From: a virus
Taxonomy: Duplodnaviria; Heunggongvirae; Uroviricota; Caudoviricetes
DNA length: 34,499 nt
Direction: 5' to 3' (one strand)
Virus record (IMG/VR): IMGVR_UViG_648276647_000016
Location: 1 to 34,499 of that record
Positions 1-33,054 of the stretch are shown here, piece by piece (within the stretch, counting starts at the first letter, position 1; each line of letters begins with the position of its first letter). The notes under the pieces were generated by a model. That model did not search any database and was not told where the DNA came from. It was given only the letters and a program-made list of their open reading frames with translations. The translations under genes and the position numbers were made by a program.

Positions 1-300
1 TGCGCGCTTACTGACACTGGTGTAATCCGGGCAGCGCAACGGAACATTCATCAGTGTAAAAATGGAATCAATAAAACCCTGTGCAGCCCGCAGGGTCAGC
101 CTGAACACGCGTTTAATGACCAGAACGGTGGTGATGGCGAGATCAGAATAGCGCTGAGGTCTTCCCCGTGATGAAGGCGTTGCCGACTCATACCAGGCCT
201 GAATAGCTTCATCGTCCAGCCAGAAAGTTATGGAGCCACGGTTGATGAGGGCTTTGTTGTAGGTGGACCAGTTGGTGATTTTGAACTTTTGCTTTGCCAC
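1..300 (-). CDS. IS903-family transposase, N-terminal 100 codons (3' part outside window)
   Basis: Hand translation of the reverse complement from a GTG at 298-300; open to the window edge. Not in the ORF track because it is truncated. Confidence 0.8.
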   Translation of the reverse strand, partial: MAKQKFKITNWSTYNKALINRGSITFWLDDEAIQAWYESATPSSRGRPQRYSDLAITTVLVIKRVFRLTLRAAQGFIDSIFTLMNVPLRCPDYTSVSKRA

Positions 301-377
301 GGAATGGTCTGCGTTGTCGGGAAGATGCGTGATCTGATCCTTCAACTCAGCAAAAGTTCGATTTATTCAACAAAGCC
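1..377 (-). mobile_element. IS903-family (IS5 family) insertion sequence, partial; outer terminal inverted repeat at 359-377
   Basis: Minus strand of 359-377 reads GGCTTTGTTGAATAAATCG, which I recall as the IS903 terminal IR. Adjacent ORF translates to VAKQKFKITNWSTYNKALINRGSITFWLDDEAIQAWYESATPSSRGRPQRY, matching my memory of the IS903/IS102 transposase N-terminus. Element continues beyond the window start. Confidence 0.85.
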
Positions 378-816
378 CCTTCAAGTTTCTAATGTAGTTG
401 TTCAGCGCGTCATACCAGTCTGCGATATTCGAGGGCTTACGTAGCGCCAGCCTGAATAAACTACTTACCTGCTGTATGAGCATAGTCAGCTTATCAAACG
501 CATCCTCGTGCACCTCAGCAAAAAACTTACCCTGGTTTCTAAGATCTGTTTCCTGAGTAACCGGCAGTTCTCGCGATATGGAAATCTGATAACCATTAGC
601 CAGTGCTTTCGACAGAATTACATTGCCGCCGTTATACCCTCCCGCACCAGTGACTGTGTAATCAGTATCAAGAGCCAGCACAGTGATATTCTCGTCAGGG
701 TCAATCACCTGCACTACTAGATCAGATTTATTGAAAACCCTAAAGGTATAAGGGAATGATGTCGTAACGCCGTTACCGGTGTATTCGTTGTGGTCAACTT
801 CGGTTGAGACCGTCAT
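367..816 (-). pseudogene. Tail fibre / tailspike N-terminal virion-attachment domain, truncated by the IS903-family insertion
   Basis: 149-aa ORF starting MTVSTEVDHNEYTGNGVTTSFPYTF, resembling phage tail-fibre N-termini. Only codons 1-146 (378-816) are phage DNA; the last three codons and the TGA stop (367-369) lie inside the IS inverted repeat. Confidence 0.6.
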
Positions 817-5244: not shown

Positions 5245-7047
5245 TTAACCTCTCAAGAAACACGCCACAGCGACATCAAACAGGCTGGAATCCTGTATTG
5301 CCTGCTCACTTTCCCTGTTCGCTTCATCCAGTACTTCACGCGCACTGCGCGATTGTGGATTACCATCATCATCCAGCACGGTGATTATCATGTCAGGTGA
5401 TTCAAGCAGCGAGTCTTCAGCTATGCGCAGATCAATATCTCCTGCCTGATCTGACATCATTTTTTGTTCTGCCTGTTGCAATATTTTATCAGGCTCAAAA
5501 GGAGCTACTTCGTCTGGCGTCCTGACCTCTGCTGTTTTATAGAATGAAACAGCCTGAGCATTAAGTTCACTTTCTGCCTGCTGTCTCCGAGCCAGTTCTG
5601 CTCGAGCTTCAAAAAACTGACCGCCAGGCTCGTGCGGTGCCAACGCGTTACGGGAAAATTCCAGGCGTTCTTGTGCCTGCCGGATTCGTTGATCAATATC
5701 GCGAAGTCTGGCCTGTTTATCTGATCGAGCACGAGACAAAGCTTTACCGCTACCGGTTGGCTCTTCTGCAAGAATTTGTGCACGCTGTTCAGTGAGATTT
5801 TCAATAATTCGTTGGCTATTAGCGATTTCAGACTGGTAAACCTGTCTATCTCCACGCGGCAAAAGCTGCGCGGCCTGTTCTTCAAGCAACCGATTTTCTA
5901 TAGCGCGCGCCGTTACTCCATCATCTACAGATGACAGAGCCTCATTAACTGCCTGAGACAGCAGACTCTTGCGCCCAGGAATTTCACTGAAAGATGCAGA
6001 CTCAACAATGCTCGCAACGTCTACAGGTCTCCCCTGGCTAACATCAGACATGGCTTTTCGCAGAGCCTGAATGTGCGAATTACGCGAAAGCACGTTGATC
6101 GGAACGCCGGGAGCAATATCAATTTCAGCATGATGAGCGGCATTCGCCGCCAGTGCAGCATCGATATCAACTGGTGAAAAATTTGGTGCGCTTGTAGGCT
6201 CGCCGCGAGAGTTAATAAATCTGCCGACACCACCAAACGCCACCCCAAGAACAGCATCAATAGCAATTGCCTGTCGATCCAACACATCATACTGGTTAGC
6301 CATTTCGCTATAGCCACCATCACGAAGCGTTTTTGCAGTAAGCACACGCTGTGCCATACCGAACGCAATATTTGTACCTGCGGCATAGGCAATATCTGGC
6401 GTTGCACGTACTGCTGTTGCTGCGGCGCGTCGCACTGAACTTTCACCCGTCCGCGCAAGCTGAGCCGCCACACCTTCCGCCAGCGCACCGCCAGCACGTA
6501 ACCCGAGGCTCATTGGGATCAGTGTTCCGGCACCAGCAGTAATACCCTGCACTAATCCCGCTTCCTGCGCCGTCCTGAAATCAACACCCTGTGCTGTCAG
6601 CCGTTCAAACTCAGAAAAACCCTGTAGAGAAGTTACTGCCGCAGCACCTCCGACCGGACCACCGAGCGTTGTACCGACAACAGCCTGCCCGCCCATATCG
6701 AACAACCCATAAAGGACCTGCCCGGCGCTTCCGGTTGTCGCGGCATCAGGCGTCAGCCGCTTAACCTGCTGCTCTGCTAGTTTTCTCTGCTCAGCAATGT
6801 ATGAAACTGAAGTGTCATTGAGCGAGGTGTTTTCGTTAACAAACTGAGCAATCGGGGATACGATTTTATCCATCCCTGCCCATAGCAACTGATCTGGCTT
6901 TGCCACCAGCCCGGAGTACAAACCAGACAATGCCGCGCCTACAGCATTGTCGAAAAAACCAACATCGCTGTTAAAGCCAGCTGGATTTGATGCTGCTTCG
7001 TCAAGCTGCTGATTCTGGTTTACTGGATTAAGGCCAAAGTAACTCAT
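5245..7047 (-). CDS. Internal virion / ejection protein (gp15-like by position)
   Basis: 600-aa ORF, Gly/Ala-rich N-terminal half and coiled-coil-like C-terminal half; 4-nt overlap with the upstream gene. Confidence 0.5.
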   Translation of the reverse strand: MSYFGLNPVNQNQQLDEAASNPAGFNSDVGFFDNAVGAALSGLYSGLVAKPDQLLWAGMDKIVSPIAQFVNENTSLNDTSVSYIAEQRKLAEQQVKRLTPDAATTGSAGQVLYGLFDMGGQAVVGTTLGGPVGGAAAVTSLQGFSEFERLTAQGVDFRTAQEAGLVQGITAGAGTLIPMSLGLRAGGALAEGVAAQLARTGESSVRRAAATAVRATPDIAYAAGTNIAFGMAQRVLTAKTLRDGGYSEMANQYDVLDRQAIAIDAVLGVAFGGVGRFINSRGEPTSAPNFSPVDIDAALAANAAHHAEIDIAPGVPINVLSRNSHIQALRKAMSDVSQGRPVDVASIVESASFSEIPGRKSLLSQAVNEALSSVDDGVTARAIENRLLEEQAAQLLPRGDRQVYQSEIANSQRIIENLTEQRAQILAEEPTGSGKALSRARSDKQARLRDIDQRIRQAQERLEFSRNALAPHEPGGQFFEARAELARRQQAESELNAQAVSFYKTAEVRTPDEVAPFEPDKILQQAEQKMMSDQAGDIDLRIAEDSLLESPDMIITVLDDDGNPQSRSAREVLDEANRESEQAIQDSSLFDVAVACFLRG

Positions 7048-15858: not shown

Positions 15859-16572
15859 TTATTTGCCATAGAGCACTTCGGCCGCACTACGCTGGCCTTC
15901 ATTACCACCGGTGACCATGCCATCTTCAGACATCGCCTTTCCGATTTTCACGAACGTTTTGACCAGATCAGGGTGATTACCCAGCCCGGTGGTGTTCAGA
16001 TATTCTTTGAGTTCAGGTGTCCCGAACTGGTCAAGCGCACGCTGTGCGGCGCTAAGGTTAGAAATCAACTTGTCGCCACCGATTTCTTTGTCAGCTTTTA
16101 CATCCGCAGCCCACTGCTCGGTTGTTTTCTGCCAGGCTTCTGCCTGGCGCTGCTGCACACCTGCCAGAATCTTCGGATAAGCATCAACCAGCTTTTGCGC
16201 TTGCTCGTTGGTCAGGTTTAGTTCACGCGCCACCGGCTCGAATTCCTTCAACGCTTCTGTATCCAGCTCTACGCCTTCGGCAGCATGAAATTCGTACTTC
16301 TCCGGCGCACCCTCTGGCTTCTTATCCTTTTCTGCTTCTTCGGTATTGGCTTTTTCAGCAGCAAGCTCTTCCTCAGTTTTCTGAGCTTCAGAACCTTTCT
16401 CAGAGTCAGTCCCCTGGGAGTTATCCTGCGACTGGGTTTGCTCCTGCATTTCACCCGAGCCCTGAGTGGTTTCAGTTGCTCCCGTTGAAGCTGTATCTGC
16501 CTGGCCACCTTCAGTGGATTGCTCATTGCAAAGACGGCGATACAGCAAACGCTCAAATAAATTCATGATCAC
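15859..16572 (-). CDS. Scaffolding protein
   Basis: 237 aa, very acidic with low-complexity Glu/Lys/Ala/Gln stretches, between portal and capsid genes. Confidence 0.6.
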   Translation of the reverse strand: MIMNLFERLLYRRLCNEQSTEGGQADTASTGATETTQGSGEMQEQTQSQDNSQGTDSEKGSEAQKTEEELAAEKANTEEAEKDKKPEGAPEKYEFHAAEGVELDTEALKEFEPVARELNLTNEQAQKLVDAYPKILAGVQQRQAEAWQKTTEQWAADVKADKEIGGDKLISNLSAAQRALDQFGTPELKEYLNTTGLGNHPDLVKTFVKIGKAMSEDGMVTGGNEGQRSAAEVLYGK

Positions 16573-16865
16573 TCCTGTTCACTGGCCTCTTTGGCCATCT
16601 TCAAATACTGTTCAGGGCAATGCGCCATAACGCGCTGAAACAGTTCCAGCGCCAGATTGCGTTGCCCCTCATTAAATGCCATTGCCATAGCGTCCATCGG
16701 TGAGATAGCGGAAAACACACGGCCTTTCTCCAGCACCGACCAGACAACGCGACGCCCCTGTTCACTGCTCATGACAAAGCGAATGTCATCAATTTCACGC
16801 TGCGCCATGTCACGTTGCTTACGGGCGTTTTCTTCTTTCAGTTGATCGTCTTCGTAATCTGTCAT
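16569..16865 (-). CDS. Hypothetical protein translationally coupled between portal and scaffold
   Basis: 98-aa ORF; start overlaps the portal stop and stop overlaps the scaffold start. Confidence 0.45.
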   Translation of the reverse strand: MTDYEDDQLKEENARKQRDMAQREIDDIRFVMSSEQGRRVVWSVLEKGRVFSAISPMDAMAMAFNEGQRNLALELFQRVMAHCPEQYLKMAKEASEQE

Positions 16866-18541
16866 TGTGATTGCCCACCCTGACTACTAACTGCATTTGC
16901 CATAGCTGACAAAACACTCGGATCCGAAGTTTTAGCTTCGCTTAGCGTCTTGGCGCCCTGTGCCGCCGCCATCCCCATCGCCATCATTTGTTGCTGCTGT
17001 TGTTGCTGTGCCCGTTGCTGGCGAGCCTGCTCAACCTGTTCCTGCGGAACAATGACGGTTGGAGACACTCCGGACATATCAGCGAATGCATCAATCGCCT
17101 GATCAACGTTGAGTTTGTCGAGAGCTTCTGGTTTCGCTTGCGCAAGTTGACCAATGAAGTTAACCGTGGACGCCAGACTGGACAGGCCGATAGACTTCTG
17201 CGCCTGAGCCATGACGGAAATGTATTCGACCTTCAGGGGCATGCCTTCCATCGCGTCAGGCGGTGGGGGCAGCATGTTTTTACGCACCATCATCGAGAAA
17301 GCGCGGTCAATAAGAGGATTAAGACATTCGTCGTTCAGACGCTCCAGAACCGGCCCCAACATCAGAAGTTTTTCTTCTTTCATTTCGATCACCGCTTCAA
17401 CAGGCATCGAGCGGGTATTGATGTTCTGCAACATCATGAACAGATCGACAAAGTAGGCGCTGTTAATGATTTGACGAGTGTCCTGAATGTCTGCCACCAA
17501 ATCTGCTGTACTGGGGTTAACCAGATAAGCAGGCCTGAAGCCATCCTGACCAGTAATCTGATCGATATACGTGATGTCGCCAGGAAGAAGGGAGGCGCGC
17601 TGATTCTTGAGGGAAGTCGGAGCAACCATCGGCGGATTGGTGGCTTTATCAATCAACTGCGACTTGCGCTTCTGGAGAAGCTGCAATGCCTTAACAGGTC
17701 CAAGCGCCAGCATACCCGGGCATGATGATCCATAAACATCTTCGCCGTTAACTTCCCAGCGCGGAGCCATAATTGGAAACTCATCGAATCCGGACTCACG
17801 CAACAACTTGTCGTTATCGCCACCAACCTCGTAATAAACCGATTTGAATGGCTTGTTCTTGCTATCCAGCTTCGATGTATCGCGGTCAATGTTCGGGTAA
17901 ACCGAATGCATCACTTCAATCCACTTCTCGTAGGTGCCGCTTTCCCACATGCTTTTTACGGATTCGCTGACGTTATTTAGCCCGAACTCCTGAACAAGCT
18001 GACGAACAGTCATAGAGAACTTGCGAAAACAGGTGTCCACACTGCCACGAGGTGAGTTAGCCAGGTAGTAACTGCCTATCGGGAATGGCATTGTGCGAAT
18101 GATGTCCTCGTCATCCTCCAGCACTGCCATTGCACCAGTGCTGTATGTGCCGAGGCTTCCGTATAACTGCGGCAGCGACTGATAGAGATTCGACTTATTG
18201 AACATATCGTTCATGCGGTTCTGCACCGCCTCAAGCCACAACTTAACAGGGCCATAATCCATCATTTCAGGATCTGGCGTAGCCAGGCGAAACCACGGAC
18301 GCGCGGGGCTTGTGATGCCTGACATCATGCCACTAGCGAGAGTGCGCGCCGCCATAGTCCCGGTCGAATCAATAATGCGTGTATTGCGTCGATCGTTACG
18401 GTTGACCTCAGAAGTCAGAAAGCGGGAACCACGCGGGTTGATGTAATCACTCAACTCGCGCCAGTGCGGCTCGAACGACTGACGCTCGCTTTCAAGTTGT
18501 GCGAACTGTTTGTTCAATCGCTCTTTAGTTGTTTCCGCCAT
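16862..18541 (-). CDS. Portal (head-to-tail connector) protein, T7 gp8-like
   Basis: 559 aa; overall architecture and Gln/Ala/Met-rich C-terminal tail (QQQQQQQMMAMGMAAAQG) as in T7-supergroup portals. Confidence 0.7.
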   Translation of the reverse strand: MAETTKERLNKQFAQLESERQSFEPHWRELSDYINPRGSRFLTSEVNRNDRRNTRIIDSTGTMAARTLASGMMSGITSPARPWFRLATPDPEMMDYGPVKLWLEAVQNRMNDMFNKSNLYQSLPQLYGSLGTYSTGAMAVLEDDEDIIRTMPFPIGSYYLANSPRGSVDTCFRKFSMTVRQLVQEFGLNNVSESVKSMWESGTYEKWIEVMHSVYPNIDRDTSKLDSKNKPFKSVYYEVGGDNDKLLRESGFDEFPIMAPRWEVNGEDVYGSSCPGMLALGPVKALQLLQKRKSQLIDKATNPPMVAPTSLKNQRASLLPGDITYIDQITGQDGFRPAYLVNPSTADLVADIQDTRQIINSAYFVDLFMMLQNINTRSMPVEAVIEMKEEKLLMLGPVLERLNDECLNPLIDRAFSMMVRKNMLPPPPDAMEGMPLKVEYISVMAQAQKSIGLSSLASTVNFIGQLAQAKPEALDKLNVDQAIDAFADMSGVSPTVIVPQEQVEQARQQRAQQQQQQQMMAMGMAAAQGAKTLSEAKTSDPSVLSAMANAVSSQGGQSQ

Positions 18542-19189: not shown

Positions 19190-19266
19190 GTGGCATTAGC
19201 TCAGCTGGACAGAGCAACCGCCTTCTAAGCGGTTGGTCGCAGGTTCGAATCCTGCATGCCACGCCA
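19190..19266 (+). tRNA. tRNA-Arg (anticodon UCU)
   Basis: Hand-folded cloverleaf: acceptor GTGGCAT/ATGCCAC, D-stem GCTC/GAGC, anticodon stem ACCGC/GCGGT with loop CUUCUAA, T-arm GCAGG-TTCGAAT-CCTGC, discriminator G and encoded CCA. Confidence 0.85.
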
Positions 19267-19911: not shown

Positions 19912-21387
19912 TTAAGCATAGGGATCGTAATCAGTGATGGCCTTGCCTTGCTGGTTCTGCTGCCCGGGAATTCGCAGGCGCTTCGACACAGGGAACGCAA
20001 ACGTCAGCAGTAGCGCATCGCCTTTACCCGGCGAACGCCCAAGCCGCTCCTTGATATCTTCCTTCGGTTCGATAACGATTTTACCGTCCACTCGAACTTT
20101 GTACTCTGCCGCCGACAGGTCGTCCGCTGTTTCCTGGTCATCCAGCATCCCGCCGAGCCTCAGCCATATCTTGCATGCATTGAACATCTCCCCACGCTTG
20201 TTGAGCATCTGAGGGTCAGTAGACGCGCCACCGAACGGAACAAGTTGCCATGTACGACCCCACCCGTCACCGATTGACTTCAGACCAGTTCCGTAACCGA
20301 AGTCGATGAACACTGCGTCAGCCTGGTACTGGTCTTCAAAGTCAGCGATACGCTTCGCCATAATCAGATCGTCAGTGGTCTTGTTGCCAGTCCACAGCAC
20401 CTTACTGTGCAGACCCTGCCGCAGGTATATCACAGCGTCATCAACGCCGGAGTATGCCGGGTCAACGCCGATTATCACCGGAGCATGTGCAACCTGCGCA
20501 GCGGTTACCACCCGTTTCATTGCCTCGTCAGTAAGGCCGGTAGGGATAAACTGCAATTCAGATGCATCCGGGAATATGCCGCGCACACGGATTTTAACGA
20601 AATCGCTGTCTTCCCCGTAGTCATCAACCCATTTCTGCAACTGCTGTTTGTTAGTGCCTTCCACCGTCCGGCTGTCAATCTGCGCAGTTTTCCAGCGGTG
20701 TTTATATTTGCGGAAACATTCGCGGAAACGCCCGGTGTTACGTGTCGGGTTTCCGAACGCCACCCAGATAATCTCAGTGTCTTCGTCCGTAAGCGCGCCC
20801 TCAGCAACTTCCCACACCAGATCCGCAATGTTCGACGCTTCATCGAATACCACGATGATGCGTTTGCGCTCGTTGTGTAGTCCGGCGAATGCCTCAGTAT
20901 TGTGCTCAGACCAGGGGATTGCGTCAGCTCGCCACCGCTTGTCGTGCCCAGGATCATTGCTGTACATCGCGGTAGCGGTACAGGTAAACCAGTCTTTCGT
21001 GATAGCAAGGTTCGACCACTTGATAATTTCCGGCCAGGTCTTCGTTCGTAGCTGGTTGTCGGTGTTGGCGGTCACCACGACCTTACAATCCTCGCAAGTG
21101 GACATGCCCCAGTTGATCAGCATTGAGATGAATGCGGATTTACCAATACCGTGACCAGAAGCGCGTGCCAGCATAAGCGGCTGATAGCGCGTCTCTGGAT
21201 TCTGCAGGTGATCACGTATCTCTCTGAACGCATCAGCCTGCCACTGACGTGGACCGGTGGCATGTGCTAATTCAGTCCCCTCTTCCCCCCACGGGAACGC
21301 ATAGAGGGCATAGCCAAGCGGATCGTGAGTGAACCCTGCAATATCCTCGATCAACTGCTCTTCAGGAGATAACGCTGTATCTGTCAC
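19912..21387 (-). CDS. Terminase large subunit
   Basis: 491 aa with an N-terminal ATPase-like region (GHGIGKSAF Walker-A-like) and C-terminal nuclease-like region; 4-nt overlap with the upstream small-subunit gene. Confidence 0.75.
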   Translation of the reverse strand: MTDTALSPEEQLIEDIAGFTHDPLGYALYAFPWGEEGTELAHATGPRQWQADAFREIRDHLQNPETRYQPLMLARASGHGIGKSAFISMLINWGMSTCEDCKVVVTANTDNQLRTKTWPEIIKWSNLAITKDWFTCTATAMYSNDPGHDKRWRADAIPWSEHNTEAFAGLHNERKRIIVVFDEASNIADLVWEVAEGALTDEDTEIIWVAFGNPTRNTGRFRECFRKYKHRWKTAQIDSRTVEGTNKQQLQKWVDDYGEDSDFVKIRVRGIFPDASELQFIPTGLTDEAMKRVVTAAQVAHAPVIIGVDPAYSGVDDAVIYLRQGLHSKVLWTGNKTTDDLIMAKRIADFEDQYQADAVFIDFGYGTGLKSIGDGWGRTWQLVPFGGASTDPQMLNKRGEMFNACKIWLRLGGMLDDQETADDLSAAEYKVRVDGKIVIEPKEDIKERLGRSPGKGDALLLTFAFPVSKRLRIPGQQNQQGKAITDYDPYA

Positions 21388-21980
21388 TGATTACCATCCT
21401 GACGTTCTTTGAGTCGCTTCCTGGCTGCTGCTATGCGATCAGCAATTGTCACATTCACATTAACATCCAGACGTTCTTTGAACGCGTTGACATCAACATG
21501 CTTACCAATCAGCTCAAGATTCTTCACCTTGTCAGGCCATTTAATTTTTTTGAGGATTGTCTCTATCGAATCCTCGTTCATGTTCATGATGGTCGATGAC
21601 AGATCAAAGCCGCTAAGCGTAGTGCGCCAGATTTTCGGCCACTCGCGGATTGGCTTAAGGCTCCCATCGTCGTTGAGGATATCAATCACGTCCATCTGGT
21701 CGATCTCCACCAGGCGCATGAGAACGTAATCAGCACTGACACGCATTCGTTTGTTGCGCTCTTCCATCAGCTCGGCAATCCGTTTTTGAATGCGTTCATC
21801 GCGCATCATGACACTGGCTTTAACTGCCGCTGTATTTGGGGAGAATCCTGCGTTAATCGCTGCCTGAGTCTGGTTTTCAGGCGTTTTGATGTATGACTGG
21901 CAATAAGCCTCCTGCATTGCTGTTAGTGGCTTAAATTGCGTTGATTTGCGTTTATAGGTTTTAGGTTCAGCAGGCATCAT
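21384..21980 (-). CDS. Terminase small subunit
   Basis: Position immediately upstream of the large subunit with overlap. Start placed at the ATG at 21978-21980; the track start at 22058 is a TTG preceding a low-complexity Thr/Val stretch. Confidence 0.55.
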   Translation of the reverse strand: MMPAEPKTYKRKSTQFKPLTAMQEAYCQSYIKTPENQTQAAINAGFSPNTAAVKASVMMRDERIQKRIAELMEERNKRMRVSADYVLMRLVEIDQMDVIDILNDDGSLKPIREWPKIWRTTLSGFDLSSTIMNMNEDSIETILKKIKWPDKVKNLELIGKHVDVNAFKERLDVNVNVTIADRIAAARKRLKERQDGNQ

Positions 21981-22054
21981 AACCACCGTGGTAATAGTTA
22001 CCGTTGTGGTAATAGTACCATGCAAAATAAAGCCGCCATAGTTGGCGGCAGTAT

Positions 22055-22288
22055 TCAAAGTCCATCAAATTCATCGTAAAAACTCTCGTCAAGATACCCT
22101 TCCCATTTACCGCGAATGAAAATTACATCCTCGCCGCAAGGGTGCTGACTGTCGATAACTATATCCCTCCTGGCGCAACCATACTTATGCATGAGAAATT
22201 TAACCTCTTTCGGAAAATTTGCTGAGTTATCTCTCATATCTTCAAGGTCGTAGCGTATTTTTGGCATAACACCTTCGTGACATGTCAC
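22055..22288 (-). CDS. Hypothetical protein
   Basis: 77-aa ORF; its ATG lies inside the palindrome GTGACATGTCAC (22277-22288). Confidence 0.4.
   Translation of the reverse strand: MTCHEGVMPKIRYDLEDMRDNSANFPKEVKFLMHKYGCARRDIVIDSQHPCGEDVIFIRGKWEGYLDESFYDEFDGL
22277..22288. repeat. Palindrome GTGACATGTCAC (copy 2, flanks tCGTGACATGTCACAc)
   Basis: Exact copy overlapping the start codon of the 22055-22288 gene. Confidence 0.6.
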
Positions 22289-22626
22289 ACTATTAATTTC
22301 GTTTCATGCCAGCCTTTGGTCACCCAGCATTGCGAGTCACCATTACACGGGCATGAATTCACAGGAACTCTCTCGCCGCACTTACCGCAACGTTTTCTGC
22401 TGATCGATTTTATACGCCCGTGCACGCGTGCATCATCCTGGCGGATCAGTAACGCTATATACTCACCAAATTCGTAAGGCGCACGCCCGGGGCGACGCGT
22501 GGCACAGTTACGCTCCAGCATTTCAATTTCCTGAGCATCAAGCACAATCTCCAGCTTACGTACACCGGATTCAGCTTGTCTGGCTCTCTGAGCGGCTTTG
22601 CGCTCTGCTGCTGATTTAGCCATCAA
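22285..22626 (-). CDS. Hypothetical zinc-ribbon protein (C-x2-C-x9-C-x-C)
   Basis: 113-aa ORF with basic N-terminus and CGKCGERVPVNSCPC motif; possible regulator (speculative). Confidence 0.4.
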   Translation of the reverse strand: MMAKSAAERKAAQRARQAESGVRKLEIVLDAQEIEMLERNCATRRPGRAPYEFGEYIALLIRQDDARVHGRIKSISRKRCGKCGERVPVNSCPCNGDSQCWVTKGWHETKLIV

Positions 22627-22858
22627 TATTCACCTTTATCGCGAACACCTTTACCGGTTTATCACCGAAGTGCGGATGTGTGATTGTCTTGATTTCATAT
22701 CCGTCATACGGAACATCAATTCTGCGACTGAAATCGTCGCGCTTCGGATATCCCTTTGTGATAATCAGGCGGCCATTATGAGACGACAATAACTCAGTCC
22801 GCCTAGCGCCGATTATTCTGGCCGGTTTTGTAACCTGAGTGTCATTTACATGATCCAA
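22616..22858 (-). CDS. Hypothetical protein, possibly a 5'-truncated remnant at the IS21-family junction
   Basis: 80-aa ORF whose start lies within about 12 bp of the IstA start, so its N-terminal codons probably fall in the IS left end. Confidence 0.3.
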   Translation of the reverse strand: MDHVNDTQVTKPARIIGARRTELLSSHNGRLIITKGYPKRDDFSRRIDVPYDGYEIKTITHPHFGDKPVKVFAIKVNIDG

Positions 22859-22869
22859 CAGGAAATGGC

Positions 22870-24369
22870 GTGACGCTCAATACTTCTCAGGTCAGTTACT
22901 ATATGACTCAGCGTAAGAAAGGTATAACTCAGCATATCTCGGCCATGAAGGCTGGTATCTCAGTCCGTTCTGGTCGTCGGATCGAAAAAGGAGAGTGGGC
23001 AAAAAACAGTGTTCGGCACTGGCGCACACGCAAAGATCCTCTGGAAGCTGTGTGGGACAGCATGCTTGTTCCTCTGTTGAAAGAGAGGCCGGCTCTGACA
23101 CCAACAACTCTGCTGGAGATGCTACAGGATAAATATCCCGGCCAGTATCCCAACAGCCTTCGAAGAACAATGCAACGGCGAGTTCGCGAATGGAAGCTAC
23201 AGTATGGTGCAGAGCAGGAGGTCATGTTCCGCCAGCGACATCAGCCCGGTCTGCGAGGTCTGTCGGACTTTACTGAACTGAAAGGTGTAGTTGTCACCAT
23301 CGCCGGTAAGTTGTTGGCGCATAAGTTGTATCACTTCCGTCTGGAATGGAGCCACTGGAGCTGGATGCGGGTTGTGCTGGGTGGTGAGAGCTTCTCTGCT
23401 CTGGCTGAAGGTCTGCAGGAAGCCCTCGGACAACTGGGCGGAGTGCCGGTAGAACATAAAACGGACAGCCTGAGGGCAGCATGGAAACAACAGGGCGAAG
23501 ATGGACGCCGCGAGCTGACTGAGCGTTATGCTGCTCTCTGTCAGCACTACGGAATGCAGGGCGTACACAATAATGCTGGTCGGGGCCACGAAAATGGCTC
23601 GGTTGAAAGTGCCCACGGACATCTGAAAAGGCGTATCTGTCAGGCGTTGATACTGCGGGGCAGTAACGACTTCAGCACCATAGAAGAATATCAGGCCTTC
23701 ATCACTCAGCAGGTTATGCGGCACAACCGTAACAATCAGGATCTGGTCAAGGAAGAACGTCTTCATCTGAAACCGCTGCCGCTTCGTCGCAGTGCTGACT
23801 ATGATGAGCTGACTGTGAGGGTTAGCCGCAGCAGTACCATCAATGTGAAGCACGTCGTCTACAGCGTACCTTCCCGGCTTGTAGGTCAACTGTTACGGGT
23901 CCGGTTATGGGACGATCGTCTGAGCTGTTATGTTGGCAGCAGCGAGGTCATGAGCTGCCCTCGTGTCAGACCAGAAAAAGGGAAGACGCGGGCCCGTCGT
24001 ATCGACTTCCGACATGTGATCGACAGTCTGGCAAAAAAGCCCGGTGCGTTCTGCCATGCAACGCTGAGAAATGACATCCTGCCAGACGATGAATGGCGGA
24101 GACTGTGGCGTCGCTTATGTAATCATCTGGAACCCGACATGGCAGGAAGGCTGATGGTACATGCCCTGAAACTGGCTGCAGGATACGACGATATCTCAGT
24201 CGTGGCAAAAGGTATGGAGCAGATGCTGAATACCCCGGGAAACGTGGATCTGCACCGGCTGATGCGCTTCCTGGGTATAAAGGAAAAGGCGTTGCCGGTA
24301 GTCAATGTGAAACAGCATAACCTGAGCAGTTATGAGCAACTACTGCGTGGCAAGGGAGGTTCGCAGTGA
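22870..24369 (+). CDS. istA: IS21-family transposase IstA
   Basis: 499 aa with N-terminal HTH-like region and central DDE-type domain; GTG start with AGGAAA Shine-Dalgarno (alternative ATG at 22903); stop overlaps the istB start. Confidence 0.7.
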   Translation: MTLNTSQVSYYMTQRKKGITQHISAMKAGISVRSGRRIEKGEWAKNSVRHWRTRKDPLEAVWDSMLVPLLKERPALTPTTLLEMLQDKYPGQYPNSLRRTMQRRVREWKLQYGAEQEVMFRQRHQPGLRGLSDFTELKGVVVTIAGKLLAHKLYHFRLEWSHWSWMRVVLGGESFSALAEGLQEALGQLGGVPVEHKTDSLRAAWKQQGEDGRRELTERYAALCQHYGMQGVHNNAGRGHENGSVESAHGHLKRRICQALILRGSNDFSTIEEYQAFITQQVMRHNRNNQDLVKEERLHLKPLPLRRSADYDELTVRVSRSSTINVKHVVYSVPSRLVGQLLRVRLWDDRLSCYVGSSEVMSCPRVRPEKGKTRARRIDFRHVIDSLAKKPGAFCHATLRNDILPDDEWRRLWRRLCNHLEPDMAGRLMVHALKLAAGYDDISVVAKGMEQMLNTPGNVDLHRLMRFLGIKEKALPVVNVKQHNLSSYEQLLRGKGGSQ

Positions 24370-24689
24370 GCAATATCCATCACCTTGAACGCAGCCTGCG
24401 TAAACTACGCCTGACACGAGTTGGAGCTGAATGGCACGCTCTGGAAAAACGAGCGCTGGCAGAAGGCTGGACACCATCGCGCTATCTTCTGACGCTATGC
24501 AATGAAGAACTCCTGTGGCGCGAGAGTGAAAAACTGCGTCGTTATAAAAAGGAGGCCCGGTTGCCAGTTGCCAAAACGCTAAGCGAATACGACTTCAGTC
24601 AGGTGCCGGAACTGAATGGAGCTCAGTTCCGGCAACTCTGTGAAACGACAGACTGGGTTGATGCTGGAGAAAACGTTCTGCTGTTCGGG
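24366..24689 (+). pseudogene. istB: IS21-family helper ATPase IstB, N-terminal fragment
   Basis: MSNIHHLERSLRKLRL...DWVDAGENVLLFG matches the IstB N-terminus up to the Walker A position, where the expected GPSGVGKTH is replaced by unrelated sequence. Confidence 0.65.
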
Positions 24690-24847
24690 GCCAGCGCATT
24701 AGCACGCACCAGTTGCACTTCCAGTTGCGTTGCCAAATCGCTGATCAGCTTTGCCACACTGCGCATATCAACGGCACCACATTCAGCTTTCAGTTCCGAA
24801 GCCATCTCATGCCCGGCGGCAACTAACCCTTTGATATTACTTTCCAT
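24690..24847 (-). pseudogene. N-terminal fragment (~52 codons) of a phage early-right gene, truncated at the IS21-family junction
   Basis: MESNIKGLVAAGHEMASELKAECGAVDMRSVAKLISDLATQLEVQLVRANA reads as protein-like; beyond ~24690 the frame is antisense to istB. Confidence 0.4.
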
Positions 24848-24908
24848 CTTTACCCTCGCTTATCCACATAACTTATTGATTACATTGATAACTAAAAAGA
24901 TCGTCGAT

Positions 24909-25253
24909 TCAGAACTCTTCGATATTCCAGCCACCATCTGCTTTCTTTGGTTTAACCGTTACCCCGATAATTCGGAACGGATACTGATCTGCGGCGACTT
25001 TGGTTTTCACCCTAGCGTCGTCGGTCCAGAAACCTTTCACTTCGTGCAGTTCCATCTCTCCTGTGGCGAGCATCACAGCGAAATCTGGCGTATAGAACGT
25101 GTTGTCAGCTAACCGCAGCTTGATACCCTCGAATCGATACCAGGCTATTTCCCCTGCGCGTTTACGCTGCTCAAGGTGCTGGCAATACGCAGATTCTGTT
25201 TTGTTCATCTGGCCTGTTTTGAGTCGACCAAGAGCCTGTATCTGTTTTCTCAT
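24909..25253 (-). CDS. DUF1064-like phage protein (putative PD-(D/E)XK-fold)
   Basis: 114 aa; pattern YRFEGIKLRLA...YTPDF...ELHEVKG recalled from DUF1064 proteins of lambdoid replication regions. Confidence 0.5.
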   Translation of the reverse strand: MRKQIQALGRLKTGQMNKTESAYCQHLEQRKRAGEIAWYRFEGIKLRLADNTFYTPDFAVMLATGEMELHEVKGFWTDDARVKTKVAADQYPFRIIGVTVKPKKADGGWNIEEF

Positions 25254-25256
25254 GAT

Positions 25257-25332
25257 TTACCCCTTAGGTAATTAAAAACCACATAAGACATGAAATCAAT
25301 AGATATTAGAACATTTTATTACCTATAAGGTA
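25257..25332 (-). promoter_or_regulatory. Promoter flanked by two operator palindromes (TTACCCCTTAGGTAA 25257-25271; TTACCTATAAGGTAA 25318-25332)
   Basis: Minus-strand reading (tctaatatctattgatttcatgtcttatgtggtttttaattacc) parallels the PL-like region (ctcatatctattgacatcaaaccaaatacgcataattattacc). Confidence 0.5.
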
Positions 25333-25370
25333 ATTATATAGGCGTAAAAAAATGCGCTATCGCGCTGGTA

Positions 25371-26156
25371 TTACTTGATAAATCCTGCCGCCTTTCCCCG
25401 CCTGTATTCCTCCATCAGCCACTGCGCCGGTGTTATTCCCCCCAGGGTGGCTGCGTTAGGCATGCACCCGAAACTTCGCCCTAGTGGATGGTAAACGTCT
25501 CTCCCTGTGTCCGGAGGTGTACTCATGGGTTCTGGCTTTGCCTGTATGCTGATCACTGGATCGGGTATCTGCTGTCCGGAAGCCACCTTTTTCGCCCAAT
25601 CATCGAGCAGCCTGCGCGCGTGTTTCTCAACCTCAATCTCGCTAAGCTGGCGCTGATACATTGCACGGCGGGTATCACATACGACCCAGTACATAACCGG
25701 ATGCCGCCACGGGAATCTTTCGGGACCGCCAGGATATAAACTTTTTTCCTTGCTGTACCGGTGAAACTCCGCCATCACATCGTCAATGGTGACACCAAGA
25801 ACCATCTTGCTGTCTTTGCACCACTTGATAAATTGCCCAGGCGACGGCCAGAACGGAGATTCACTGGCGCGGGCGTGGCGCATACCAGCAGAAACCTGTT
25901 CACGGGTTCGGATCCCACCTTCGGCAAACGCAGCAATCCACTGCTGTTTTGCAGCGACTTCCTGCTCTGGCGTCTTCAGGTTGGTTACCACTGCCGCCGG
26001 AAACAGTTGTTTCAGCTGTTTGAAAAGGGCATCAACAAGCCTCTCTGCTGACATGTTCACCACATTGTCATTGTTGACGTACTGATGCTCATAACCTGAC
26101 ATGCGAGAAAGGGCTTCTCCGTCACGGTTTTGTATCGCGGTAAAAACGTTGTTCAC
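25371..26156 (-). CDS. Replication protein P-like (DnaB helicase loader)
   Basis: GGIRTREQVSAGMRHARASESPFWPSPGQFIKWCKD matches my recollection of lambda P (NGITTMEQVNAGMRVARRQNRPFLPSPGQFVAWCRE). Start placed at the GTG at 26154-26156 after a GGAGGA Shine-Dalgarno, giving a GTGA overlap with the O stop. Confidence 0.75.
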   Translation of the reverse strand: MNNVFTAIQNRDGEALSRMSGYEHQYVNNDNVVNMSAERLVDALFKQLKQLFPAAVVTNLKTPEQEVAAKQQWIAAFAEGGIRTREQVSAGMRHARASESPFWPSPGQFIKWCKDSKMVLGVTIDDVMAEFHRYSKEKSLYPGGPERFPWRHPVMYWVVCDTRRAMYQRQLSEIEVEKHARRLLDDWAKKVASGQQIPDPVISIQAKPEPMSTPPDTGRDVYHPLGRSFGCMPNAATLGGITPAQWLMEEYRRGKAAGFIK

Positions 26157-26968
26157 AAGAAATCCTCCCACGCTTCAGGGCTGTTCCAGTGCGGAACGTT
26201 GTTATCAGGTAATGTTGATTGCTTCTGTCTGCTAATCTGCAGCCGCCTTGCCAGCTTCTGCTCCCACTGTGCCTGATGGTATGCCTTACCCTCAGCCATC
26301 CAGTAAATTCTGAATTCTGCAAGTTCCTGTGCCGTTGGCAGACTGTCCAGGTAGATTCCCTGCAATGAGCTTTTCCGAAGAAAGTCATCTGATGGTTGCC
26401 ATTGTTCATGCATGACAAATTTGCCTAATTGCCCTAGCCCACCAGGAGGAACAAAGTTATTCATCACGGCGTTGTTTGCGCCGGGGTCATGAGGCACAGA
26501 ATCCCCGGTTTTTGTCCTGCTCTCCCTCTCTTGGTTAAATGACTGGTTATATGACTGGTTCTGGATCCCGTTTTTGGGATCATTCAACATCCCGTTTTTG
26601 GGATCATTCAACATCCCGTTTTTGGGTATATTCCCGTTTTCGGGAACATTACCGTTTTCGGGTTTATTACACCCTTCTAGGTTGCCTTTAATGTTCCCTT
26701 TTTTGGTTATATTAAGAGAGAAAACCCGCACTCTTTTCGTCGCTCCCTTTCTCTCTCCGGTATCTGAAATAAGCCCCATTTTCATGAGCGATATAAGCCC
26801 GGCCTGTACGGTTTTTTTATTCAGGCAAGTGTCTTTAACGAGGCGTTCTATGCTGGGGTAGCAGAGGTTATATTCATCGGCTCTGTCAGCCATCGAGAGC
26901 AGTATGAGCTTTAATGATGAGCTACCTGGATCTGTCTCCCAGGCCCAATCTGTTGCATGTCTGCTCAT
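26153..26968 (-). CDS. Replication initiator O-like protein (N-terminal winged-helix, central repeat region holding the origin)
   Basis: 271 aa; strong RBS (GGAGATT); internal peptide repeats NDPKNGML are encoded by the DNA iterons; immediately upstream of P. Confidence 0.65.
   Translation of the reverse strand: MSRHATDWAWETDPGSSSLKLILLSMADRADEYNLCYPSIERLVKDTCLNKKTVQAGLISLMKMGLISDTGERKGATKRVRVFSLNITKKGNIKGNLEGCNKPENGNVPENGNIPKNGMLNDPKNGMLNDPKNGIQNQSYNQSFNQERESRTKTGDSVPHDPGANNAVMNNFVPPGGLGQLGKFVMHEQWQPSDDFLRKSSLQGIYLDSLPTAQELAEFRIYWMAEGKAYHQAQWEQKLARRLQISRQKQSTLPDNNVPHWNSPEAWEDFL
26564..26668. repeat. Origin iterons: two perfect 24-bp direct repeats (ATCCCGTTTTTGGGATCATTCAAC) plus three degenerate copies, each containing TCCCG-N-CGGGA-type dyad symmetry
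   Basis: Directly visible tandem repeats inside the O-like gene, followed by an AT-rich stretch (26669-26720), as in lambda ori. Confidence 0.7.
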
Positions 26969-31314: not shown

Positions 31315-32410
31315 ACAAAACAATAATATAAAAGGTAATATCATGAGCAAGGTAGGCGATTATTTCTTTGAATTTCCCGCATCACGAGGAACGCAGGGAA
31401 GCACTGTAATACTTATGATGACAGTACCAGCAAGAGCACTATCGAGAGTATTGGCAACCGACAATACGGGAAGTACCCTTGAACGTTCTCAACGTGAAAT
31501 TAATCCAACTAGGGTAAAAAAGTTTTATCAATATTTAGTCAACGCTTACGAGAAAAAGGAACCATTTATTGTTCCACCATTGGTCGGAAATTGTAACTCA
31601 GAAATAGAGTTCCATGAGATTGGAAATACTAATGTCGGTTTAGCTAGATTTCCTATGGATGCAGAAATAAAATTATTTGATGGACAGCATCGTGCTGCAG
31701 GATTAGCTGAGTTCTGCCGTAATTATGGTGAAACAATTATGATTCCTCTTATGCTTACGCATAACCTTCCTTTGAAGGCGCGTCAGCAGTTCTTTTCTGA
31801 CATTAATAATAATGTTTCAAAACCATCTGCAGCAATTAATATGGCGTATGACGGACGAAACGATGTTGCCCAAGAAATGGTGTCTTTCCTGTCGCAACAT
31901 GACACTTTTGCAGAAGTCACTGACTTCGAGCACAACGTTGTTCCGTCAAAGTCAAACATGTGGGTGAGTTTCAAAGCATTAAGTGATTCAACATCAAAAT
32001 TTTGTATTCATAATGGAAAAAAACTAGAAATTGGTAACATCGAGTCAGTATGGGAATCATGGTTATGTCTTACACAACTAGAAGCAATTCGCCATGGTAC
32101 AAAGCAATCAGAATACAAAAGAGAATATATCCAGTTTCATGCAGTGATGATTAACGCTTTTGGTTATGCTGTTCAGCAAATGATGGTTAATCACTCAATA
32201 AAAGAAATAATTTCAATGATTGAAACATTATGTGCAAATACTGACTTCGCAGAAAGAGAGAATTTTTTCCTAATGGATAATTGGGTTGGGATCTGCACGA
32301 AAGCAAGCCAGGAAAAACTATCAGTTATTGCCAATGTAGCAGCACAGAAAGCGGCAGCAAACAGGCTGATACAAGCCTTTACCAAAGGAAGTCTGGGAGC
32401 AGAGCAATGA
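31307..32410 (+). CDS. DGQHR-domain protein (DndB-like, ParB/Srx-fold)
   Basis: Contains the exact DGQHR signature (KLFDGQHRAAGLAEF); ~355-367 aa like DndB; gene is strongly AT-rich; alternative start at the ATG at 31343. Confidence 0.6.
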   Translation: MNKQNNNIKGNIMSKVGDYFFEFPASRGTQGSTVILMMTVPARALSRVLATDNTGSTLERSQREINPTRVKKFYQYLVNAYEKKEPFIVPPLVGNCNSEIEFHEIGNTNVGLARFPMDAEIKLFDGQHRAAGLAEFCRNYGETIMIPLMLTHNLPLKARQQFFSDINNNVSKPSAAINMAYDGRNDVAQEMVSFLSQHDTFAEVTDFEHNVVPSKSNMWVSFKALSDSTSKFCIHNGKKLEIGNIESVWESWLCLTQLEAIRHGTKQSEYKREYIQFHAVMINAFGYAVQQMMVNHSIKEIISMIETLCANTDFAERENFFLMDNWVGICTKASQEKLSVIANVAAQKAAANRLIQAFTKGSLGAEQ

Positions 32411-33054
32411 AAAAATACACGCTAATATATGCAGATCCACCCTGGGTATACCGGGACAAAGCCGCAGATGGTAATCGCGGCGCTGGTTTTAAATATCCGG
32501 TTATGAGTGTGCTGGATATCTGCCGCCTTCCTGTGTGGGATTTGTCCGATGAAAACTGTCTGTTGGCCATGTGGTGGGTGCCAACACAACCACTCGAAGC
32601 ACTAAAAGTTGTTGAAGCCTGGGGATTCCGTCTGATGACCATGAAGGGCTTCACGTGGATAAAATGTGGTAGTCGACAACCAGATAAACTAGTTATGGGT
32701 ATGGGACACATGACTCGCGCCAATAGTGAAGATTGCCTGTTTGCGGTAAAGGGAAAACTACCTCCGCGCATTAATGCAGGTATCGTTCAGTCATTTACCG
32801 CACCGCGGCTTGAGCATTCAAGAAAACCAGATGTCGTTCGTGAAAAACTTGTGCAATTGTTAGGCGATGTTTCTCGCATTGAACTGTTCGCCCGCCAGTC
32901 GTCTCATGGCTTCGATGTTTGGGGTAATCAGTGCGAAGACCCGGCAGTGCAACTACACCCTGGATACGCGTTGGATATTGGCGGATTAACAAATGCATTC
33001 AGCAATGCTCCGCTGTCACCAACAGACAACCAGGGGCGGGAGCGTGCAGCATGA
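32407..33054 (+). CDS. MT-A70-family DNA N6-adenine methyltransferase
   Basis: Starts MKKYTLIYADPPW (DPPW catalytic motif) with further conserved stretch HSRKP; start overlaps the DGQHR stop (ATGA). Track start 32281 is an upstream extension. Confidence 0.7.
   Translation: MKKYTLIYADPPWVYRDKAADGNRGAGFKYPVMSVLDICRLPVWDLSDENCLLAMWWVPTQPLEALKVVEAWGFRLMTMKGFTWIKCGSRQPDKLVMGMGHMTRANSEDCLFAVKGKLPPRINAGIVQSFTAPRLEHSRKPDVVREKLVQLLGDVSRIELFARQSSHGFDVWGNQCEDPAVQLHPGYALDIGGLTNAFSNAPLSPTDNQGRERAA

Follow-up and report, generated by a model that had tools for sequence, protein, structure and literature searches.

An ISEc10 remnant between the replication and packaging genes

Sequence comparison of the 34,499-nucleotide virus record IMGVR_UViG_648276647_000016 (positions 1 to 34,499; the window, meaning the whole stretch of DNA analyzed) identified most of a phiV10/epsilon15-like prophage of the genus Uetakevirus, lying on the minus strand and carrying a 3'-truncated copy of the insertion sequence (IS) ISEc10 between its replication and packaging genes (Table 1). 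Salmonella phage epsilon15 is the type member of Uetakevirus. Blast comparison with phage records gave best matches to the Uetakevirus phages PAS61, phiv142-3, ZX5, phiV10, and TL-2011b, together with the unverified record PH444. PAS61 (vB_EcoP_PAS61, OQ921333), placed like phiv142-3 in Uetakevirus by its taxonomy line, was co-linear with the window at 90-98% identity over ~29 kb, from the tailspike N-terminus (382) to the int start codon (34499). The window itself was 100% identical to scaffold GL883914.1 of the Escherichia coli assembly GCA_000176555.2, referred to here as the source scaffold.

Window positions 22777-24696 on the plus strand corresponded to positions 1-1920 of ISEc10, an IS21 family element of 2410 bp, in an ungapped alignment with 1906 of 1920 nucleotides identical (99.3%) and 14 mismatches. 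Megablast against 5426 complete E. coli genomes aligned window 22770-24696 with hundreds of copies annotated as "IS21-like element ISEc10 family" at 99.1-99.3% identity. The length and ends of the intact element were set by comparing the flanks of four fetched copies (L002-L005), three of them bounded by target duplications of 5-8 bp (GCCAG, 5 bp, in L002; GGCCAT, 6 bp, in L003; and CAATATAA, 8 bp, in L005). Intact ISEc10 begins with TATGAGACGACAA, finishes with GTTGACGTCTAATA, and displays an imperfect terminal inverted repeat of ~48 bp between its left and right ends. An earlier note on this DNA, made from the letters and their open reading frames (ORFs), had proposed a 3'-truncated IS21 family element, which the alignment confirmed. 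The note had also placed the left end at ~22860 by equating it with the start of istA, and this position required correction: the end lies at 22777 (TATGAGACG...), 93 bp upstream of the istA GTG codon. Only this left terminal repeat is present in the remnant. For positions 1921-2410 of ISEc10, which contain the right inverted repeat, the window gave no match, nor did the source scaffold to ~10 kb on each side of it.

The encoded IstA was 100% identical to WP_000174402.1 and to the IstA proteins of L003, L004, and L005, the nucleotide differences in istA (n = 11) all being synonymous. The istB frame overlaps istA by 4 bp and matches positions 3-107 of the 238 positions of the Pfam IstB_IS21 profile, with a score of 76.8 bits against NCBIfam NF038214 IS21_help_AAA that falls below the cut-off of 200. 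Alignment to intact IstB located the break after residue 108, within the Walker A motif (LLFGAS/GLGKS, the slash marking the break), in agreement with the earlier observation that IstB-like sequence is lost after ~108 codons near 24690; the divergence falls at 24689-24696. In intact copies the missing right-hand 490 bp encode the IstB AAA+ core, starting at Walker A, and contain the right inverted repeat. No full-length IstB AAA+ helper ATPase is encoded downstream of istA. In comparison with the RefSeq-annotated ISEc10, the window copy shares the left end, the 4-bp overlap of istA and istB, and IstA (WP_000174402.1), whereas it lacks positions 1921-2410 and the target duplication and is an immobile remnant rather than a functional IS. 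With one end only and no helper ATPase, the remnant would therefore be unable to transpose, even though full-length IstA is still encoded.

The bases preceding ISEc10 insertions were alike in the window (GGCCAT), L003 (GGCCAT), L002 (GCCAG), and L004 (GCGCCA), with CAATATAA in L005. This suggests a loose preference of ISEc10 for GGCCA-like targets, and the same core occurs within the octamer GGCCAGCG at the deletion junction.

Table 1. Features of the ISEc10 locus and of the lysis cassette (window positions unless the source-scaffold sequence L009 is named)
Feature	Position	Strand	Basis or remark
Small terminase subunit (terS), first packaging/structural gene	21384..22058	-	Pfam Terminase_2, E 1.4e-29
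Small phage gene (phrog_1541)	22055..22288	-	In PH444, absent from PAS61
Small regulator-like gene (phrog_536), intact, 112/113 aa	22285..22626	-	Upstream of terS; phrog_536 "transcriptional regulator", E 1.5e-54
3' part of a phage gene (phrog_625, 93 aa when complete), last 53 codons	22616..22776	-	Matches PAS61 (L001) 6464-6624; protein alignment
Left terminal inverted-repeat region of ISEc10 (TATGAGACGACAA...)	22777..22824	+	Imperfect inverted match of ~48 bp to the right terminus of intact elements; phage homology ends at 22776
istA, intact, 499 aa	22870..24369	+	NCBIfam NF033546 transpos_IS21, 227 bits (cut-off 160)
istB', first 108 codons	24366..24696	+	Frame continues over phage DNA in antisense, with its stop at 25112
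Deletion junction, 8-bp microhomology GGCCAGCG	24689..24696	.	Three-way alignments; octamer occurs in the L002-type istB allele and in the eae-like gene of the phage
5' part of an Eae-like gene (phrog_614, 215 aa when complete), first ~53 codons	24689..24847	-	PAS61 comparison, PHROG match
DUF1064/Holliday-junction-resolvase-like gene, intact	24909..25253	-	Last intact early gene before the deletion
Lambda-P-like replication protein	25371..26171	-	Pfam Phage_lambda_P, E 1.5e-56
Holin, 102 aa	within L009 11854-13245		Phage_holin_3_7, phrog_217
GH19 endolysin, 209 aa	within L009 11854-13245		Glyco_hydro_19, phrog_181
Rz-like spanin, 155 aa	within L009 11854-13245		phrog_312

Junctions of the remnant and the missing phage DNA

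The left junction is clean, with PAS61 homology extending up to window 22776 (L001 6624) and ISEc10 following from 22777. The 80-aa ORF at 22616-22858 (minus strand), previously read as starting within a few bp of the IS left end, proved to be an IS/phage chimera in which the first ~27 codons derive from ISEc10 and the last 53 from the C-terminus of the phrog_625 gene. The right junction lies within istB, where the window reads ...CTGCTGTTCGGGGCCAGCGCATTAGC..., and PAS61 homology restarts at ~24689. On the ISEc10 side the sequence continues through GGCCAGCG, present as an exact octamer in the L002 allele, and on the phage side GGCCAGCGCATTAGC occurs in the eae-like gene of PAS61, phiv142-3, and TL-2011b. 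The 74-aa ORF at 24623-24847 (minus strand; MESNIK...) had been described as a phage ORF beginning where IstB is lost; it is indeed phage sequence, being the start of the Eae-like gene, but it reads on as a chimera into antisense istB, the gene having kept its start and lost its 3' part. Exact-protein look-ups found neither the 80-aa chimera nor the 248-aa fusion ORF that begins with IstB' on record, that is, they have not been called as genes.

The phage DNA absent between the two junctions amounts to 2372 bp in comparison with PAS61 (L001 6625-8996) and 2821 bp in comparison with PH444 (L013 4002-6822), the nearest relative as far as the left flank is concerned, being contiguous through window 22076-22274. 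In both relatives this DNA encodes Ead/Ea22-like, DUF551, DUF4752, and Eae-like proteins together with PHROGs of unknown function, and hidden Markov model (HMM) scans of these genes in PAS61 and PH444 identified no lysis or antiterminator family. The deleted genes belong to the variable accessory set and were probably not essential.

The clean left end and a right junction that joins istB to an eae-like gene 2.37 kb (PAS61) or 2.82 kb (PH444) away support the earlier suggestion that the IS inserted and that a deletion next to it followed. Among all possible random IS-by-phage junction pairs, a fraction of just 1.3e-4 falls within a shared run of at least 8 bp, and the shared octamer thus favors microhomology-mediated illegitimate recombination over a random break. 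In the history proposed here, the 2410-bp ISEc10 would have inserted after GGCCAT inside the 93-aa accessory gene, antisense to the phage early-right operon. A later, presumably RecA-independent microhomology deletion (slippage or illegitimate recombination) would then have fused GGCCAGCG of the istB Walker A region to the octamer in the eae-like gene, removing the final 490 bp of the IS together with the target duplication on its right and ~2.4-2.8 kb of accessory genes (Ea22, Ead/Ea22-like, DUF551, DUF4752, and most of Eae). We assign a probability of roughly 0.85 to ISEc10 insertion and subsequent microhomology deletion in a Uetakevirus prophage whose lysis cassette was never involved and which is nevertheless defective.

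Several points weigh against this history. The commoner ISEc10 allele reads AGCCAGCG, in which the octamer begins with A, not G, and the microhomology would measure 8 bp only if the inserted copy was of the L002-type allele and 7 bp otherwise. The deleted length (2.37 versus 2.82 kb) and the exact gene content are estimates, as the interval is mosaic among relatives. With the right end of the IS gone, the remnant offers no target duplication as evidence of the insertion. Finally, insertion and deletion may have occurred in another prophage and then been imported.

This last scenario, in which remnant and deletion arose in a related prophage and were transferred by homologous recombination between prophages, is the best surviving alternative and is nonetheless quite unlikely. 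The interval is mosaic, its left flank being most like PH444 and the bases at the right junction being PAS61-like (GCGCATT, compared with GCTCATT in PH444), as an import would predict. Against it, no other genome or contig on record contains either junction: neither was covered in any of the 5426 complete E. coli genomes by megablast, a 35-mer across the right junction had no exact match in the GTDB representative genomes, being evidently absent from the one that represents E. coli, and the chimeric 74-aa ORF was on record solely for assembly GCA_000176555.2 and its read set. On these searches the junctions appear strain-specific.

Adjacent deletions are common with IS elements, and the deletion might have been produced by ISEc10 itself through a transposase-mediated adjacent deletion or intramolecular transposition, all the more as the junction octamer includes GGCCAG, resembling the GGCCA(T/G) targets at three ISEc10 insertion sites. 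Transposase-made adjacent deletions begin exactly at the IS end and leave the element intact. Here the break is internal, in istB and 490 bp short of the right end, whose inverted repeat is missing; a transposase-mediated origin was rejected on these grounds and is given very little weight. A false join at a repeat during draft assembly is about equally improbable. The source scaffold is gapped, and the left edge of the window is a run of N inside another IS, features that would be expected of such an artefact. However, an independent Logan assembly (run SRR024152) yielded a single contig 100% identical to window 22743-26594, across the remnant and both junctions, and 8-bp overlaps are not used by assemblers for joining; mis-assembly was rejected on the evidence of the Logan contig.

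Lysis genes and late gene control

The earlier note had recognized no holin, endolysin, Rz, or Q-like gene between the P-like gene and the terminase and had suggested that such genes were lost with the deletion. The first observation was upheld: Pfam, PHROG, and NCBIfam scans of window 22055-25371 identified no lambdoid Q/lysis module upstream of terS, and the small ORFs at 22055-22858 contained no holin or endolysin family. This layout is, however, normal for the genus. The interval from P to terS contained no lysis or Q genes in the relatives, as determined by HMM scans for PAS61 and PH444 (a record that carries no annotation) and by annotation for PAS61, phiv142-3, and TL-2011b. Its content there was limited to the DUF1064 gene, accessory genes of the Eae, Ea22, DUF551, and DUF4752 types, and the phrog_536 regulator.

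The holin, endolysin, and endopeptidase genes of PAS61 occupy 37866-39287, following those for the tailspike and the O-antigen acetylase and beside attP/int. Extension past the window edge from the truncated tailspike ORF reached the corresponding cassette in the source scaffold (L009 11854-13245), 1.0-2.4 kb to the left of window position 1, full length and with holin and endolysin lengths equal to those of PAS61. Beyond the cassette come an att-like sequence matching PAS61 1-104 and then host genes, so that the cassette lies downstream of the tailspike gene and adjacent to att, the arrangement of a Uetakevirus. By this comparison the lysis genes were never part of the deleted interval; they occupy the opposite end of the prophage, beyond the window, and are intact. 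The loss of lysis and Q-type genes from between P and the terminase, for which the lack of any such family between 22055 and 25371 had spoken, is hardly credible given four intact relatives without them in that interval, a genus that keeps its lysis genes after the tailspike gene, and the intact holin-endolysin-spanin cassette. The prophage resembles the lambdoid late region (Q - PR' - S/R/Rz - nu1/A) in having a lambda-like P, DnaT/O-type replication, and ea22/eae-type genes upstream of the terminase, whereas the Uetakevirus members examined have no Q or lysis genes between replication and terminase and carry the lysis cassette at the end of the late operon.

The remnant forms a 1.9-kb insert, antisense in a rightward operon between the replication genes and phrog_536/terS, and could be polar on downstream expression. 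A consensus scan of 21900-25500 for promoters and terminators returned, within the IS, no more than weak terminator-like sites on the minus strand.

The phrog_536 gene, upstream of terS, has a homologue in TL-2011b that bears the annotation transcriptional regulator. The C-terminus of the encoded protein is Cys-rich (CGKCG...CPCNGDSQC). The protein had no sequence match in Pfam, NCBIfam, or PDB, no large homology search having been made, and its single-sequence AlphaFold2 model (mean predicted local distance difference test score 44) was too poor for a fold search. A strong terminator-like hairpin occurs at 22032-22049 on the minus strand (region 22015-22060; GCCGCCA-ACTA-TGGCGGC followed by a T-run), in the stretch that separates the end of the small gene (22055) from the probable terS ATG. 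Its folding energy was -16.2 kcal/mol (z -3.5), none of 200 shuffles was equally stable, and the block aligned at 97-98% identity in PAS61, phiv142-3, TL-2011b, and PH444.

The phrog_536 gene and the hairpin could form a control point of the late operon; a literature search for late regulation in Uetakevirus found nothing. A further-reaching proposal, which is speculative and rather unlikely, is that the pair acts as the late-gene switch of Uetakeviruses, an analogue of Q/tR' unrelated in sequence, and that the ISEc10 remnant uncouples this switch from the early-right operon and locks the prophage out of late expression. If so, the prophage would be a natural mutant without late (structural and lysis) expression despite its intact lysis genes.

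A second insertion sequence and the remaining prophage

A second IS, of the IS903 type in the IS5 family, meets the tailspike gene in the region of window 1-816 (and L009 10440-11667), with its end GGCTTTGTTGAATAAATCG at ~377, and the assembly gap at the left edge of the window lies inside this element. It shortens the tailspike ORF to 149 aa (367-816, minus strand), and no 9-bp target duplication was found for it. PAS61 homology jumps here from 33597 to 37680, leaving ~4.1 kb missing, so that in comparison with PAS61 the second IS has cost the prophage the tailspike C-terminus, the O-antigen acetylase region, and part of the next gene. Because most of the tailspike gene was removed in this way, the prophage is predicted to be defective independently of the ISEc10 remnant; it should form no infectious particles, yet host lysis upon induction may be possible.

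The remaining gene order is that of the Uetakeviruses, to which the prophage is 94-98% identical between the tailspike N-terminus and int, proceeding through int, recombination genes, repressor, DnaT-like, P, accessory genes, terS, terL, tRNA-Arg, and portal to the tailspike and holin-endolysin-spanin genes. Apart from the ISEc10 remnant with its 2.4-2.8 kb accessory-gene deletion and the loss at the second IS, the prophage differs from Uetakevirus phages in an extra DndB-like gene beside an MT-A70 methylase gene. In the source scaffold int adjoins guaA, matching the integration site at the 3' end of guaA described for the Uetakevirus ZX5 (PMC9782041).

The DndB-like gene (355 aa; PADLOC DndB, E 2e-37) forms part of 31343-33054 (plus strand) with the MT-A70/type II methyltransferase gene, which it precedes and overlaps. 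It is absent from PAS61, in which no homology was found for window 31323-32409, and is a possible prophage-borne defense or modification moron. A tRNA-Arg(tct) gene is located at 19190-19266 (plus strand) beside the large terminase gene and is so annotated in phiv142-3 and O157 typing phages. The portal gene encodes 559 aa here and 735 aa in PAS61, and window 17786-18333 aligns doubly to PAS61 16145-17221, which suggests that an internal tandem duplication of ~530 bp in the PAS61 record, and not a deletion from the window sequence, accounts for the difference.

The locus represents ordinary prophage decay, with a known IS, a known kind of prophage, and a known kind of deletion, and nothing in it points to new biology. 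That lysis and Q genes seemed to be absent is explained by the epsilon15/phiV10-like layout and the position of the window edge, not by gene loss, and the gene order of lambda should not be applied when annotating epsilon15/phiV10-like prophages. What the locus would provide is a clean, strain-specific case of two-step decay, in which an IS insertion was followed by an 8-bp microhomology deletion that disabled both the IS and some of the accessory genes around it.

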